Below the pieces are notes generated by a model that made no database searches, was not told the DNA's origin, and saw only the letters and a list, made by a program, of their open reading frames with translations. Of a DNA stretch of 64,000 bases, positions 11,952 through 62,232 are shown in pieces (position 1 is the first letter of the stretch; each line of letters opens with the position of its first letter). Position numbers and translations under genes: made by a program. The stretch spans positions 1,748,007 through 1,812,006 of the forward strand of contig CBDEUD010000003.1 of the NCBI GenBank assembly GCA_965243115.1. The letters run 5' to 3'. Source of the stretch: Gammaproteobacteria bacterium. GTDB lineage: Bacteria > Pseudomonadota > Gammaproteobacteria > Eutrophobiales > Eutrophobiaceae.

Positions 11952-11997
11952 ATTATATAGCCGTGTGTCCGGACAATAACAAGTGCTATCCTACCAG
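11952..11997 (-). promoter_or_regulatory. candidate promoter of the ankyrin gene with conserved upstream CTGGTAGGA box
   Basis: On the minus strand: CTGGTAGGA-N6-TTGTTA-N17-TATATAAT. Confidence 0.4.
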
Positions 11998-12051
11998 TTC
12001 CCCCCGGGGTATTCAGGTAACACAGGCAATAACATCGCACTTGAACAGGCA

Positions 12052-12095
12052 CTGGTAGATTGCCTGTTGACTCAGTTTGAACAGCTGACTATAAA
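12052..12095 (+). promoter_or_regulatory. sigma70-like promoter with conserved CTGGTAGAT box
   Basis: CTGGTAGAT-N6-TTGACT-N17-TATAAAT. The spacer GTTTGAACAG is shared with the sheath-operon promoter. Confidence 0.5.
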
Positions 12096-12147
12096 TTTCC
12101 AATATACTGGGAGATAAGTCTCTCCAGTTGCTTACGCGGAATTTCAG

Positions 12148-12181
12148 AACCCGCGCCGGTTTGCCGGCGCGGGTTTTTTTC
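12148..12181 (+). terminator. intrinsic terminator in a promoter-proximal leader
   Basis: Perfect 12-bp GC-rich stem AACCCGCGCCGG / CCGGCGCGGGTT with loop TTTG, followed by TTTTTTTC. Confidence 0.65.
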
Positions 12182-12236
12182 TGCCCGCTTGTCCGAACAT
12201 CCGGAATTACCCGGAATCACTGGTGAGGTGCTCAAG

Positions 12237-58297: not shown

Positions 58298-58329
58298 AGA
58301 CAACGGCTTTGTCCCGCGGGTGCTGATTA

Positions 58330-61300
58330 TTACTTGTCGTCTTCGTCTTTCCCGGGTTTGAGTGATGGATCAAACAGTTTTTTCGTATGGAGATATTCGT
58401 CAGGGCTCTTGACCCGTAAACTGTGTTCAGGATCGTGTTTTGTAGGTGCCGTATTGTGCAACCTGGGGTGAGGCAGCCTGTACAGCAGGGGTCCTTCCCC
58501 GCGTTTTTCAATGTCCGGGACGATAAATTGCTCCAGCCATGCATTGAATAAAGCTACCCGTTCGGCCATATCGGGGTAGTCCGGGTAACGCAGGTAGCCC
58601 ATTTCCTGTAACATTTCCCACGTCAGCATCATTTGTTTCATTGTCTGGAAGGTAGGAATTTCAAGATCAGGCTGCCCGGTTACCTTCATGTAGCTTTCCA
58701 GTGCCCGGGCGTACGCCAGGCAGTTTCTCGCCTGGTTGGTGGAATTTTCCAGGTCCCAATACGGTCCCGTCTCTTCGATGTTTTCCTTCGAGTACAGGGA
58801 CTCGGCGATCCGTTCCCGCATTTCGTCAAAATTATCAATGGGATAAATGAACATCGCGTGACGTCCCTTCAGGACCTTGTCGGGGAAACGCATCTCTTCA
58901 ATGAATGCGCGCGATATGTATCCGAACATGTTCCCTTTGGTATAGGTGGATTCATCGTACCGGCCGACAGGGATACGGTAGGGGGTGTATTTTCTCTCGC
59001 CGGTAACGGGGTCCTCGTCGAAATCTTTCCGGATGAGATGGACCCAGACTCCCTTGTCCGGGCGGTCGGTTTTGTACAGGCCGAAAGACGAATGTGCAAC
59101 TACAAAATCAAGCTCATCGCGGATCCTCGGACTCGAAACGTACGCCGTGTAAGCAAAATCCGTGTGTCCTTCAGGACCGGGCAAGGGGCCTGGAATGTCC
59201 TTGAACGGCTCGAGCAGTGAAGTTCGGTACGCGTTGGGATGGCGTTCCTGGGCAGGCGTCAGGGCAGGCATGCCGGCAAAATAATCCGGATTGACCTTGT
59301 ATGCCTTTTTGGTGCCAATCCATTCCCGGAACTCCCTGGTGATATCGGCCGTTGCACCGCCGAACTGTTCATTATATAAACGCGGGTCGGGTAAGAAGCC
59401 GACCGGCTCATCACCCGTTCTCTTGTAGAGCCAGTCGTTGAAAATTTGTTCAACACCCATGTTGAAGATATGAATCCGGTTTACGGAACTTTCATCGTCA
59501 TAGAAACGGCCGTAGCCCAGTTTGAAGGCGTTCAGGAACGCATCCATGTATTCCCGCAGCGAATTCGACTTGCGCGCACCGGCGAATATCCCGGTCAGTT
59601 GCGGGTCCATGAACTCCGTCAGTCTTGCCTGCTCCCCGGCATAGTTAAAACAATTGACCGGGTAATCGGATTCGGGCGCATGAATTTTCCACCACGGATA
59701 ATCCTCGGCGCCATCTTCAGCCTTTTTCGGCGTCATTGACCTGATGAGCCTGTCCCGCATCTCGTGGAAAGTCTCTTCCGTGACGGGCATGACGACCGCG
59801 GCGACACCCTTGGTAAAATTGTAATCGACATCCCGCACCTGGATGCGGTACGCCTTACCCATGAGGTTTCCCTCAATGAGCGTCGACCCGGCGGGGGCGT
59901 CCGTTTCTGTCCTTGTATTAATCATTATTTCCATCGATGCGCCTTGTTCCTGCCGCCGGGCATCGACTACGGAGATGTCGGCATGCACTCCCATGGTCCC
60001 CTGCACAAATGTTATATCCTGGGCAAATCTCAGCACGGCAAAATACCTGTGACCCGCGTCTCCGGGAAGCGGGCGAACCAGGTTTTTAATGGGATCGAAC
60101 CCCGCGGAGGTGAACTCAATGTTCCCGTAGGCATAAACGGGGGACTTGCCGAACTTGTTTTCCCGGACTTTAAACGTCCTGATCACTTGCGGATAAGATG
60201 AAGCAACGGTATCACCGGGCGCCTGGCCGCCTGCGTGCAATGAGGTCCAGTGATCGAAGGCCCCGCCGCTCTCATACCCCGGCATGACGGGAGTGGTATG
60301 GCTGTCATGCCGGCGCGTGCGATCCCCGTACCATTGATACGGACTGCGCCAGTTTTGCCTTTGCAGCCACTCGCTTCCGGGCCGGACCACCCCTTCAACC
60401 GCGCCGCCGACAGAACCATCCACTAGCGAACAGGCGAGCACTTCGCTGAACCTGTTATGCTGGTCATCGGGATAATGTTTCATGACTTCACCCAGGATTT
60501 TTCCGTCCAGCGCGCCCAGTCCCACACAGCCGATGGACATGAACGCGCCACCGAGTGAATTGGCAAAAACGCTGCCCCGGGGAGGCGCGGTACCCAGGTT
60601 TTCCCTGTCTGCCGCATTCCGGGTCCTGATAAACAGGGAGTTGCTGCCGACATCGCCTACGTTTGCCTGTTTCAGGGCAACCTCCATCAATGGACCGGTG
60701 ATCATTTTCAGCGACGTCCAGAGAGGATGTTGAATGTATGGGAGCGGGATGGATTTTTTAACGCCTTCGGCTATTTCCCTGATTTCGCTGGAAGGTACGT
60801 CAAGGGCCCACAGGGATGAATATAATCCCACCGCGCCAAGCCCTTGTCCGGCTGCCATGACCATATTCGGCAAACGGCCGTGCTGCGGGTTGGGTGCGTA
60901 GGAGAATTTCGTATACTCTTCAACCATCGGCATAATGCGCGGGACCAACAGTCCGCTGGCTCCCAGCGCCACGGCGCCCGCAAAAAATCTTGACAGCGCC
61001 GGACTCAGACCCAGGCCCCAGGGCCCGCATACGGCAAACGTTATTTGCCCCAGGGCATATCGCGATATTGCAGTCCCGAGAATATAGGCGGCTATCCTGA
61101 TGGGAGCCGGAGCGAGGCTGCGCCCGTCTGCGATGCAGGCCATGACCTCTTCAAACTCTATCTCATGGCTGTCCTGTGCGCTGGGCATAACCAGGGGGTA
61201 AGAGCTGTCATCCCGTTGTCTCAGCGTACGGGCGCGGTCAGCCCAGTAATCTATTTCATGGCTGTCCTGCGCACTCGGCATAACCATGGGATTCATACCC

Positions 61301-62175
61301 CGTTGTACCGGCGCGGCGTGCCGGCCGGACCAGGCATGGTGTCCCATCCGGCCGAGACGCCTCAATACGCGTCCCCCGGCCATCTGCAAGGGTGAAGCGG
61401 CAACGTTCGCGCAAGGAGCAGCTGCAGATGCAGGTATCCGATCCAGCAGGGAGGCTGCAGATTCGCCCCTGGTTACGGCGCCGGCTACGCGATCGGCGTG
61501 CCGTTCGTAGCTGTCGCCGGTCTGTCCCACCCCTCCCTGTAACCGGGCAGCGCCGGGATTTTGCACGTAGTGGGCCGCCTCATGGGCTGCATCTTCCAGG
61601 GTGGGTGCATTGCCGAATGCCACCCGGCCGCCCTTGTGGTAGGCATCTGAACCAAATTCGGAATTGGCGGACCTGGCTGCGGTTCCCGTATAAGCCGTCA
61701 GGCCGTCGATTTTGTGCTTCGGGCCGAATGCCTGCTGGATTTGTTCCTTAAAAGGGTAGTCTTGAGGCGCATCGCTGAAGCCTTGCATGGCCAGGGCATG
61801 AATGCCTTGGTATTGCTGTTGTACAAAAGCCAGGGTGGCCCGGTTTCCGAAGTTTGCCTGTGCATTATCGACAGCATGCTTGAACATCAAGGGAGGACAT
61901 CCGTTGTTGATGCCGTTACTGATGTCATCCAGGGAAGTGAAGACATTCCCTCGATCCGGCTGGTTCGGGGCTGATGCAGGGAGGGCGCCGGGAGCTGCAG
62001 CGGGCGCGGGGACGGGGTTATGTTCTGTTGCAATTTTTCCTTGTTCGAGGGATGCGTTACCCTGCTGGTGTTCGTATGGTATGTGAGACATGAGCAATGT
62101 TTTACACTCAGAGCCTGTTACAGGTTCCGGGCAAGTGGGGATGGTTTGGGGTTGGCAGGAGACGCAACTCGCCAA
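58330..62175 (-). CDS. large DUF4157-domain toxin-like protein (up to 1281 aa)
   Basis: Leader FGNRATLAFV. DUF4157 (IQQAFGPKHKIDGLTAYTG...AAHEAAHYVQ). Internal duplicated VMPSAQDSHEI segment. Hydrophobic TM-like middle. About 600-aa C-terminal region of unknown function. The N-terminus may start at the downstream Met (62091). Confidence 0.7.
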   Translation of the reverse strand: MASCVSCQPQTIPTCPEPVTGSECKTLLMSHIPYEHQQGNASLEQGKIATEHNPVPAPAAAPGALPASAPNQPDRGNVFTSLDDISNGINNGCPPLMFKHAVDNAQANFGNRATLAFVQQQYQGIHALAMQGFSDAPQDYPFKEQIQQAFGPKHKIDGLTAYTGTAARSANSEFGSDAYHKGGRVAFGNAPTLEDAAHEAAHYVQNPGAARLQGGVGQTGDSYERHADRVAGAVTRGESAASLLDRIPASAAAPCANVAASPLQMAGGRVLRRLGRMGHHAWSGRHAAPVQRGMNPMVMPSAQDSHEIDYWADRARTLRQRDDSSYPLVMPSAQDSHEIEFEEVMACIADGRSLAPAPIRIAAYILGTAISRYALGQITFAVCGPWGLGLSPALSRFFAGAVALGASGLLVPRIMPMVEEYTKFSYAPNPQHGRLPNMVMAAGQGLGAVGLYSSLWALDVPSSEIREIAEGVKKSIPLPYIQHPLWTSLKMITGPLMEVALKQANVGDVGSNSLFIRTRNAADRENLGTAPPRGSVFANSLGGAFMSIGCVGLGALDGKILGEVMKHYPDDQHNRFSEVLACSLVDGSVGGAVEGVVRPGSEWLQRQNWRSPYQWYGDRTRRHDSHTTPVMPGYESGGAFDHWTSLHAGGQAPGDTVASSYPQVIRTFKVRENKFGKSPVYAYGNIEFTSAGFDPIKNLVRPLPGDAGHRYFAVLRFAQDITFVQGTMGVHADISVVDARRQEQGASMEIMINTRTETDAPAGSTLIEGNLMGKAYRIQVRDVDYNFTKGVAAVVMPVTEETFHEMRDRLIRSMTPKKAEDGAEDYPWWKIHAPESDYPVNCFNYAGEQARLTEFMDPQLTGIFAGARKSNSLREYMDAFLNAFKLGYGRFYDDESSVNRIHIFNMGVEQIFNDWLYKRTGDEPVGFLPDPRLYNEQFGGATADITREFREWIGTKKAYKVNPDYFAGMPALTPAQERHPNAYRTSLLEPFKDIPGPLPGPEGHTDFAYTAYVSSPRIRDELDFVVAHSSFGLYKTDRPDKGVWVHLIRKDFDEDPVTGERKYTPYRIPVGRYDESTYTKGNMFGYISRAFIEEMRFPDKVLKGRHAMFIYPIDNFDEMRERIAESLYSKENIEETGPYWDLENSTNQARNCLAYARALESYMKVTGQPDLEIPTFQTMKQMMLTWEMLQEMGYLRYPDYPDMAERVALFNAWLEQFIVPDIEKRGEGPLLYRLPHPRLHNTAPTKHDPEHSLRVKSPDEYLHTKKLFDPSLKPGKDEDDK

Positions 62176-62187
62176 AGTCTATTGATA

Positions 62188-62232
62188 ATTTATAATCAAG
62201 TGTTCAGACAAATGCAATATTTAAGTTACCAG
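62188..62232 (-). promoter_or_regulatory. candidate promoter of the large DUF4157 gene with CTGGTAACT box
   Basis: Minus strand: CTGGTAACT-N6-TTGCAT-N17-TATAAAT. The spacer contains GTCTGAACAC. Confidence 0.4.

Follow-up and report, generated by a model that had tools for sequence, protein, structure and literature searches.

A promoter cassette built on an upstream 9-mer is shared by an extracellular contractile injection system, its candidate cargo genes and a putative Q-like antiterminator operon

Introduction

How an injection machine and the cargo genes scattered around it come to be switched on together is the question raised by a 64-kb stretch of DNA from a gammaproteobacterium (GenBank assembly GCA_965243115.1, contig CBDEUD010000003.1, positions 1,748,007-1,812,006 of the forward strand), which is referred to here as the window and numbered from its first letter. 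The window contains an operon for an extracellular contractile injection system (eCIS), dispersed genes for candidate cargo proteins and a small regulator operon encoding a Q-like protein, and the 9-mer CTGGTARAT or a close variant lies in front of all of them. We propose that this 9-mer is probably the upstream block of a late-promoter cassette belonging to a phage-derived two-gene module, in which the Q-like protein acts by antitermination. Machine and cargo would then switch on together, and the cassette is most likely read by the neighbouring Q-family antiterminator.

The joint switching-on of eCIS particles and their cargo has so far been largely unexplained. Q-type cassettes are textbook knowledge, with AlpA as a domesticated example. 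RfaH-type factors, which are paralogues of NusG, load at an ops site within the transcribed leader, and AnfA1 is an RfaH-like regulator of Afp/PVC-type eCIS. The regulators so far linked to eCIS include RfaH-type and GerE/LuxR proteins, and RfaH-type control amounts to processive antitermination of a long operon (PMC8213781). In the searchable literature, no cis-element reaching unlinked cargo was described for the RfaH-like, LuxR/GerE or BTAD regulators of eCIS, and our literature search found no description of Q-type control of an eCIS and no promoter motif linking unlinked eCIS cargo genes.

Results

The 9-mer lies at a fixed distance from the -35 hexamer

Both strands of the window were scanned for the 9-mer, with 100 shuffles as the null. 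Exact CTGGTARAT was found seven times against 0.60 expected, a count that none of the shuffles reached, and five of the seven copies are intergenic sites listed in a preliminary description of this DNA, which had placed the 9-mer 6 bp before a -35-like hexamer at seven genes. The pattern CTGGTA-N9-TTG reproduced that set exactly, with seven occurrences against 0.23 expected, all at the coordinates first described and including the variants CTGGTAGGA and CTGGTAACT. The other two exact copies (CTGGTAAAT; 1556-1564, minus strand, and 63789-63797, plus strand) lie inside open reading frames (ORFs), without a TTG at +6, a -10 box or promoter context, and are probably chance occurrences. The list of seven proved incomplete, as an eighth site, CTGGTAGAA at 17874-17882 (plus strand), had been missed.

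Alignment of 27 related sites showed that the 9-mer is part of a larger conserved cassette, nTGGTARAT-N6-TTGnnn(-35)-TGTTYRAACA-TATAAA(-10)-N6-TAnAnT, from which a position matrix of 57 columns was built. With +1 set at alignment column 53 (good to about 1 bp), the 9-mer occupies -52 to -44 and is followed by 6 variable bp, the -35 hexamer TTGnnn at -37 to -32, a spacer element TGTTYRAACA at -30 to -21, a -10 box (TATAAA, GATAAT or TAGAAT) at -13 to -8, which leaves an 18-bp spacer from the -35 box, and a -10-like element TAnAnT at -1 to +5, 6 bp past the -10 box and often followed by GGG. The TGAACA part of the spacer element lies at about -26 to -21, 18-19 bp upstream of TAnAnT. Since information content is close to zero between the blocks and in both flanks, the alignment indicates that the cassette is a set of constrained blocks rather than a copied fragment. 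Columns not used for site selection were still conserved (T25 and A30 in 27/27, G24 in 24/27). The -10-like hexamer, read by eye, stands within about 1 bp of its common position in roughly 26 of the 27 aligned sites, and its columns T52, A53 and T57 were each conserved in 20/27. Moreover, many copies of the spacer element are partly dyad-symmetric (TGT-N4-ACA), and the symmetry is perfect in TGTCCGGACA at 11966-11975.

In the window the matrix matched six sites over their full length, at 37-67 bits; shuffles reached 2.3 at most. The eight promoters, their blocks and the intrinsic terminators in their leaders are as follows, with matrix scores for the six matches and with related loci denoted L001 and so on.

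12052-12108, plus: full cassette of the gene for a 613-residue protein (score 66.6); 9-mer 12052-12060, -35 TTGACT 12067-12072, spacer element 12074-12084, -10 12091-12096, -10-like TATACT 12103-12108.
12148-12180, plus: intrinsic terminator in the leader of the 613-residue protein gene (start ATG 12237); kept in L001 and L002.
11941-11997, minus: full cassette of an ankyrin-repeat gene (9534-11864, minus; score 43.9); CTGGTAGGA 11989-11997, TTGTTA, TGTCCGGACA, TATATA, -10-like TATCGT; leader terminator absent; orthologous sites at L001 5392 (minus) and L002 5145 (minus).
16057-16113, plus: full cassette of the regulator operon (score 64.7); 9-mer 16057-16065, TTGCAC, AGTTCAGACA, -10, -10-like TAGAGT followed by GGG.
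16170-16206, plus: intrinsic terminator in the leader of the regulator operon.
17874-17930, plus: eighth site, in tandem, 134 bp upstream of the sheath promoter (score 37.4); CTGGTAGAA, N6, TGGACA, TTGTTTGAACGA, ATAAAT; -10-like element absent; kept in L001, L002 and L003.
18008-18064, plus: full cassette of the eCIS operon, the sheath promoter (score 60.4); 9-mer 18008-18016, TTGACT, TGTTTTAACAG, GATAAT, -10-like TACACT.
18103-18138, plus: strong intrinsic terminator before the sheath start codon at 18163 (13-bp stem, run of nine T); kept in L001, L002 and L003.
54406-54462, minus: promoter of DUF4157-OtsA (gene 51615-54380, minus); 9-mer 54454-54462, N6, TTGCCA, -10; no Q-binding-like element, -10-like element or terminator; kept in L011, L012 and L013.
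54485-54541, plus: promoter of DUF4157-OtsB; 9-mer 54485-54493, N6, TTGTAA, weak -10 AACACT; no Q-binding-like element, -10-like element or terminator; kept in L011 and L012.
62176-62232, minus: full cassette of a large DUF4157 protein gene (58330-62091, minus; score 54.9); CTGGTAACT 62224-62232, TTGCAT, TGTCTGAACA, -10, -10-like TAGACT; leader terminator absent; kept at L011 2063 and L012 1914.

The promoters fall into four classes. Class A combines the full cassette with a leader terminator (12052, 16057 and 18008), class B has the full cassette and lacks the terminator (11997 minus and 62232 minus), class C has the 9-mer, spacer element and -10 box and lacks the -10-like element (17874), and class D has 9-mer-N6-TTG and a -10 box only (54462 minus and 54485 plus). 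Thus, -10-like elements are found at five of the eight promoters and leader terminators, at about +45 to +98, at three; none was seen in the leaders of the ankyrin, large DUF4157, OtsA and OtsB genes of the window. The only block common to all eight is the 9-mer. The flanking elements, which had been called similar, do form a cassette extending well beyond the 9-mer, although the OtsA and OtsB sites share only its 9-mer-N6-TTG part. The identity between the 12052 and 18008 sites, initially put at about 80% over some 45 bp, was 69% when measured without gaps over 45-57 bp.

The fixed spacing was confirmed by a scan that made no use of the 9-mer. The window and the related loci were searched with columns 22-58 only, from the spacer element to the -10-like element, leaving the 9-mer and -35 box unused. 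Among the 40 sites recovered, seven of which had no part in building the matrix, 35 had TGGTA at a distance of exactly 20 bp upstream, one (L004 9555) had it at 19 bp, and L002 11212 carried CGGTA at 20 bp. L003 9183 and L003 9601 had no TGGTA; both were low-scoring and are probably false.

Two other promoter types suggested by parts of the motif were rejected. The sigma-54 consensus is TGGCAC-N5-TTGCW, and CTGGTA-N9-TTGCA of the cassette resembles its form CTGGCA-N6-TTGCA; however, all sites have TGG and TTGC 14 bp apart, not 11, and GG is followed by TA, not CA. An extended -10 box was read from the likeness of TGGTAAATT to TGnTAAATT; the would-be T-7 is T in 17/27 sites, and the invariant G4 falls at a free position.

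A small 5' hairpin was also observed just past the -10-like element, or overlapping its 3' part, and before the terminator. It occurs in the window at 12106-12128 and 18065-18093 and in L004 at 10439-10456, 10575-10592 and 10714-10731. Some of the changes in it are compensatory: ACACTG...TGTGT versus ACGCTG...AGCGT in L004 and, between the window and L003, GTCTTC/GAAGGC versus GTGTGTCTT/AAGACACAT.

The Q-like protein and its small partner

The regulator operon begins with two adjoining genes (16434-17058).

16434-16679, plus: gene for an 81-residue protein with three predicted helices; copies 41-72% identical stand beside the Q-like gene in L004, L008, L009, L010 and L052.
16681-17058, plus: gene for the 125-residue Q-like protein, a remote PF06530 relative.

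Because a terminator lies in its leader at 16170-16206, this operon would itself need read-through for its expression. In the modelled fold of the 125-residue protein, a sigma-region-4-like helix-turn-helix (HTH) is packed against an N-terminal helix, with a flexible loop that could shape a ring at the exit channel; the fold is like those of Q21 and AlpA and agrees with the Q21 type. Its best structural matches were region 4 of extracytoplasmic function (ECF) sigma factors, and a search against PDB sequences gave only marginal ECF sigma region 4 matches. The protein had no Pfam match of its own, and none to PF06530 (Phage_antitermQ) even at E <= 10; it matched phrog_79, 'anti-termination protein Q-like', over nearly its full length (residues 7-123, E 1.7e-4). 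A profile of its family recovered 567 representatives at E <= 0.001, nearly all 115-140 residues long and matched over their full length. PF06530 was matched by 16 of 43 sampled relatives, full length and mostly below the curated cut-off, which one of the ten relatives checked singly did reach (P0046, 26.5 bits versus 26). Furthermore, the broad family profile aligned with E. coli QuuD in hhalign at 79.7% probability (E 1.5e-5, 111 columns); the quuD late region of DLP12 in E. coli is disrupted by nmpC and IS5. Another remote relative, P0039, is encoded on a phage contig and is followed directly by holin, endolysin and SLT genes, which is the classical Q position.

Among 5.8 billion proteins, the 125-residue protein had 23 close clusters, in which the C-terminal HTH is invariant. 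By tblastn no match was found among GenBank phages or PLSDB plasmids, and a protein-based scan of the metagenome collection gave no matches. By count, the net charge of the Q-like protein is about +9 and the 81-residue protein is neutral, and the Q-like protein is the sole predicted DNA binder of the pair.

The third gene of the regulator operon (17113-17694, plus) encodes a 193-residue coiled-coil protein with one hydrophobic, seemingly transmembrane stretch when read by eye. Other loci have a different third gene (DUF2730 in L009) and do not conserve this one, whose product may be lysis- or release-related.

The cassette recurs with the gene pair in other genomes

In all recovered loci encoding the 125-residue protein, a gene for a protein of 76-81 residues lies immediately upstream, 41-72% identical between loci, and the cassette is present as well. 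The cassette recurs together with this pair in genomes of 32-56% GC whose Q-like proteins are 48-96% identical. L001-L003 are related eCIS loci in metagenome-assembled genomes labelled Gammaproteobacteria; both the cassette and the gene pair are present, and terminators are conserved in the orthologous leaders of the related eCIS loci. In L004-L006 and L008, from AT-rich genomes (38-40% GC), the pair precedes genes for a lambda-like non-contractile tail. The L004 and L008 clusters contain major-tail, M, L, K and J-like genes and no head or terminase genes within 10 kb, and by gene content look like F-type (non-contractile) tailocins under the same switch. In L009 the gene pair is followed by DUF2730 and SLT-transglycosylase genes, in what looks like a lysis region. 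The cassette is still present after the Q-like gene in L007, a 1.6-kb contig of 32% GC.

Some loci depart from this layout. L004 carries three head-to-tail copies of promoter, leader and terminator between the Q-like gene and the tail genes (10388-10800), and L008 has further cassette sites at 10548 and 11443. In L052, on the same contig as L008, two tandem copies of the gene pair (5562-7278; P0035 and P0020) stand before a single tail cluster; the outermost promoter has a spacer-like element, but the 9-mer does not occur at its usual distance. Three further loci were uninformative: L010, whose promoter is degenerate and which lacks tail genes; L053, a contig of 651 bp; and the phage L050/L051, which combines a remote Q-like gene with a different small ORF and a different promoter.

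The 9-mer-N6-TTG part is also kept upstream of the OtsA, OtsB and large DUF4157 orthologues (the OtsA proteins are 66-86% identical). The gap between the divergent OtsA and OtsB 9-mers is 22 bp in the window and 13 bp in L011; therefore, each box belongs to its own promoter. Scans for TGGTARAT-N6-TTG-N4-TGTTYRAAC gave three viral (IMG/VR) and 33 metagenome matches, all without the -10 and pause blocks. We treat these as chance, and the viral one inspected (L014) lies inside an ORF; by these scans the cassette is rare.

Taken as a whole, the conserved cargo promoters and the linkage to the gene pair support the original proposal of a common regulatory site tying dispersed cargo to the injection machine.

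Machine, cargo and neighbouring genes

The genes around the cassettes are as follows.

18163-44795, plus: eCIS operon, by Pfam matches; sheath, gp19-type tube, CIS tube, spike, gp25, baseplate J, CIS tape measure, AAA ATPase and two Pvc16_N genes.
22749-22780, plus: terminator-like hairpin with a T-run inside the eCIS operon, after the third sheath gene and before the first tube gene.
14230-15866: FecI-like ECF sigma (14230-14814) and FecR, between the 613-residue protein gene and the regulator operon.
44868-47264: TonB-dependent receptor directly after the eCIS, also in L011-L013; no STN domain in Pfam.
47341-57210: trehalose-related block of glucokinase, GH65 phosphorylase, beta-phosphoglucomutase-like HAD, DUF4157-OtsA, DUF4157-OtsB and a LacI-family regulator.
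62244-63884: MalT/LuxR-family gene; a MalT-GerE gene also adjoins the large DUF4157 orthologue in L011 and L012.

The core genes and the DUF4157-tagged cargo place the system among Afp/PVC-type eCIS. Passing the hairpin at 22749-22780 would need a polymerase competent for read-through. OtsA, OtsB and the large protein have in common a DUF4157-type N-terminal domain with the motif AHEAAHxVQ. The label DUF4157-OtsB holds, in that its N-terminal domain matches both the OtsA fusion (E 9e-20) and the large protein (E 2e-25). Since both enzymes carry this cargo-type domain, their sequences suggest that DUF4157-bearing OtsA and OtsB are injected effectors; no paper on trehalose-synthesis enzymes with cargo domains was found in the literature. 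Residues 32-114 of the ankyrin protein contain a leader (GNRAFLRWV...) shared with the region before DUF4157 of the large protein (E 4e-5), which may be a common packaging signal. The 613-residue protein showed no recognisable family in profile searches.

Two ORF starts differ from those first assigned. The large protein, taken earlier as a 1281-residue ORF from a TTG at 62175, more likely starts at ATG 62091 (1253 residues), as the TTG sits at the predicted transcription start. The OtsB start is probably 54625, which has a good Shine-Dalgarno sequence, not 54520. No FecI/FecR, LuxR, MalT or ECF gene lies within 10 kb in the motif-bearing loci L004, L008 and L009. The window gave no matches in scans for Rfam families and tRNAs.

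Discussion

From the observed architecture of the cassette, its conservation and linkage to the gene pair, and the family and fold of the Q-like protein, we infer binding, pausing and read-through, together with a positive effect of the 9-mer. In the proposed mechanism, sigma-70 RNA polymerase would initiate and then pause at the -10-like TAnAnT, where the Q-like protein, bound to the TGAACA element, would load onto it as Q21 and AlpA do. The modified polymerase would pass the leader terminator and transcribe the 26-kb eCIS operon. The regulator operon lies behind the same promoter and terminator, an arrangement that would give positive feedback, with induction probably all-or-none. All eight promoters have the 9-mer, and the -35 boxes of the terminator-less cargo promoters are weak (TTGTTA, TTGCAT, TTGCCA and TTGTAA); for these reasons we suggest that the 9-mer affects initiation, either recruiting the module or serving as its activator site, and couples cargo to machine. 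Its binder would be the Q-like protein, perhaps with the 81-residue partner; the Q-like protein is favoured because it is the sole predicted DNA binder and positively charged, in contrast to its neutral partner. The regulon would then have two tiers, with the 9-mer at every promoter and antitermination parts at a subset.

Downstream of the 9-mer, the cassette resembles known systems. Q21 binds TGAGCA direct repeats at -25 to -20 and -17 to -12 while polymerase is paused at a -10-like element, and it works on a scaffold from -45 to +34 (PMC6606751). AlpA binds GGGACG at -25 to -20, needs the -10-like CACGAT at -1 to +5 and reads through the terminator tB (PMC7969949, PMC9371919). Both Q21 (PF06530; structures 6P18 and 6JNX; late promoter PR') and AlpA share the layout of the window cassette from the -35 box to the terminator. 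Because its position and layout match the Q21 and AlpA sites, the spacer element is, by analogy, the best candidate for the Q-binding element; its TGAACA, at about -26 to -21, is identical in 5/6 bases to the Q21 subsite TGAGCA.

Q21 needs nothing upstream of -45, whereas the window cassette has the extra 9-mer at -52 to -44 and no clear second repeat. The window protein is shorter than Q21, is itself below the Pfam threshold, has an obligatory partner gene for 76-81 residues, belongs to a non-replicating element and serves eight promoters where Q21 serves one. In Pseudomonas aeruginosa, AlpA (acting at the promoters of alpBCDE and PA0807) has no sequence similarity to it, lacks an upstream box and a partner protein, is switched on by cleavage of the AlpR repressor, and targets lysis genes, not a tail-like particle with cargo. 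RfaH-type factors are recruited in the leader, not at a promoter-embedded element with a sigma-dependent pause. Neither the upstream 9-mer nor an obligatory small partner protein was described in the literature searched. Beside the enterocoliticin tailocin cluster, genes annotated as Q have been reported but not analysed further (PMC13030884).

In function, the two-tier layout is most like GafY/GafZ of the Caulobacter gene transfer agent, compared by description and with no homology expected. There, two small proteins control a phage-derived particle: a GafY site is found at about 18 promoters, accessory genes included, and the site of GafZ, which has a sigma-like HTH, lies between -35 and -10 at the main cluster and leads to antitermination (PMC11150451). 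GafY, however, binds far upstream and needs IHF, whereas the window box is 6 bp from the -35 hexamer; the antitermination parts are found at five or six promoters in the window.

Several points weigh against this proposal. The ankyrin and large DUF4157 cassettes have Q-binding-like and pause elements but no leader terminator, and the 17874 cassette lacks the pause element. The 9-mer is without counterpart in lambda, phage 21 and AlpA. Its similarity to the spacer element is 0.405 at the 21-bp offset, no better than at several other offsets; a second copy of the Q-binding element is therefore unsupported, as is a single HTH recognising both elements. The model of the 81-residue protein gave generic helical-hairpin matches only and shows no DNA-binding signature, HTH or sigma region 2. 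In addition, transcription start sites were guessed from the -10 box, and the independent evidence amounts to about ten loci, several of them closely related. It remains a tentative possibility, short of an even chance, that the Q-family antiterminator and its 81-residue partner work in two modes, as an initiation activator through the 9-mer at all promoters of the regulon, those of unlinked cargo included, and as a processive antiterminator through TGAACA and the pause site at the operons of machine and regulator.

The extra elements could also serve to keep the promoters off. On this account, which we consider unlikely, the 9-mer and the spacer element would be operators on either side of the -35 box, facing the same way on the DNA and separated by about 21 bp; a dimer or a pair of protomers would block sigma region 4 there until inactivated, and the Q-type parts would act only afterwards. 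The elements do bracket the -35 hexamer at a distance of about two helical turns, but no repressor-like gene travels with the cassette, only the 81-residue/Q-like pair, and the OtsA and OtsB promoters carry the 9-mer alone. Similarly, the partial dyad symmetry of many spacer elements suits an operator, although the tail promoters of L004 and L008 do not conserve its right half, and a single site at -52 to -44 is badly placed to repress. Repressors nevertheless commonly hold off the late regions of tailocins and phages, as AlpR does alpA (PMC9371919).

It is improbable, too, that the 9-mer is bound by a regulator from outside the module, either the MalT/LuxR-family protein (62244-63884) or a host global factor, with the Q-like system forming a separate layer. 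About one in four eCIS loci has a GerE/LuxR regulator next to it (PMC8213781), a MalT-GerE gene adjoins the large DUF4157 orthologue in L011 and L012 as in the window, and the gene pair has no obvious second DNA-binding protein. However, the 9-mer keeps its fixed spacing in L004, L008 and L009, where no LuxR, MalT or ECF gene lies within 10 kb, and across genomes of 32-56% GC it is conserved only where the gene pair is present. The box is also asymmetric and in single copy, unlike the dyad sites of LuxR-type dimers. Among the regulators first put forward as candidates, the Q-like and 81-residue proteins co-occur with the motif elsewhere and are retained; the FecI-like sigma and the LuxR/MalT protein do not and are unlikely.

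A promoter for an alternative sigma factor, with GGTAAAT as -35 and GTYTGAAC as -10, is a very unlikely reading, whether recognised by the FecI-like ECF sigma (14230-14814) or by the 81- and 125-residue proteins as a split sigma. The two extra elements are some 15-16 bp apart, like ECF -35 and -10 boxes (the RpoE promoter, for comparison, is GGAACTT-N16-TCTGA), a FecI/FecR pair adjoins the regulator operon, and ECF sigma region 4 gave the best structural matches of the 125-residue protein. Against these stand the sigma-70 -35 and -10 boxes conserved in the cassette, the OtsA and OtsB promoters without the would-be -10, the motif-bearing L004, L008 and L009 without FecI/FecR and, for a split sigma, the generic hairpin matches of the 81-residue model, in which no sigma region 2 was seen. 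Least credible is mere common descent of a promoter fragment copied around the locus, with a 9-mer of no specific function, as the 69% identity of the 12052 and 18008 sites over 57 bp and the tandem duplicated cassettes of L004 might suggest: conservation is limited to discrete blocks, the sequence that separates and flanks the blocks is randomised, the blocks persist across very divergent genomes and GC contents, and OtsA and OtsB keep the 9-mer where the rest of the cassette is not kept.

Antitermination by the Q-like protein at 9-mer cassettes would supply a regulon model that is directly testable, in which two genes form the switch, the promoter grammar spans 57 bp and three leaders carry terminators. 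From the promoter alone the motif predicts cargo, namely the ankyrin-repeat protein, the 613-residue protein and the DUF4157-tagged trehalose-phosphate synthase and phosphatase. As far as the sequences indicate, Q-type antitermination, known from phages and from AlpA control of lysis, would extend to eCIS and F-tailocin-like clusters, and the cassette adds an upstream element that is absent from the structurally solved Q systems. Compact cassettes with tight on/off control could aid the production of engineered nanosyringes. If the gene pair does work in two modes, the cassette would represent a bipartite grammar of late promoters that has not been described before and that serves contractile (eCIS) as well as non-contractile (F-tailocin-like) particles, and the 9-mer could tag eCIS cargo genes anywhere in a genome.

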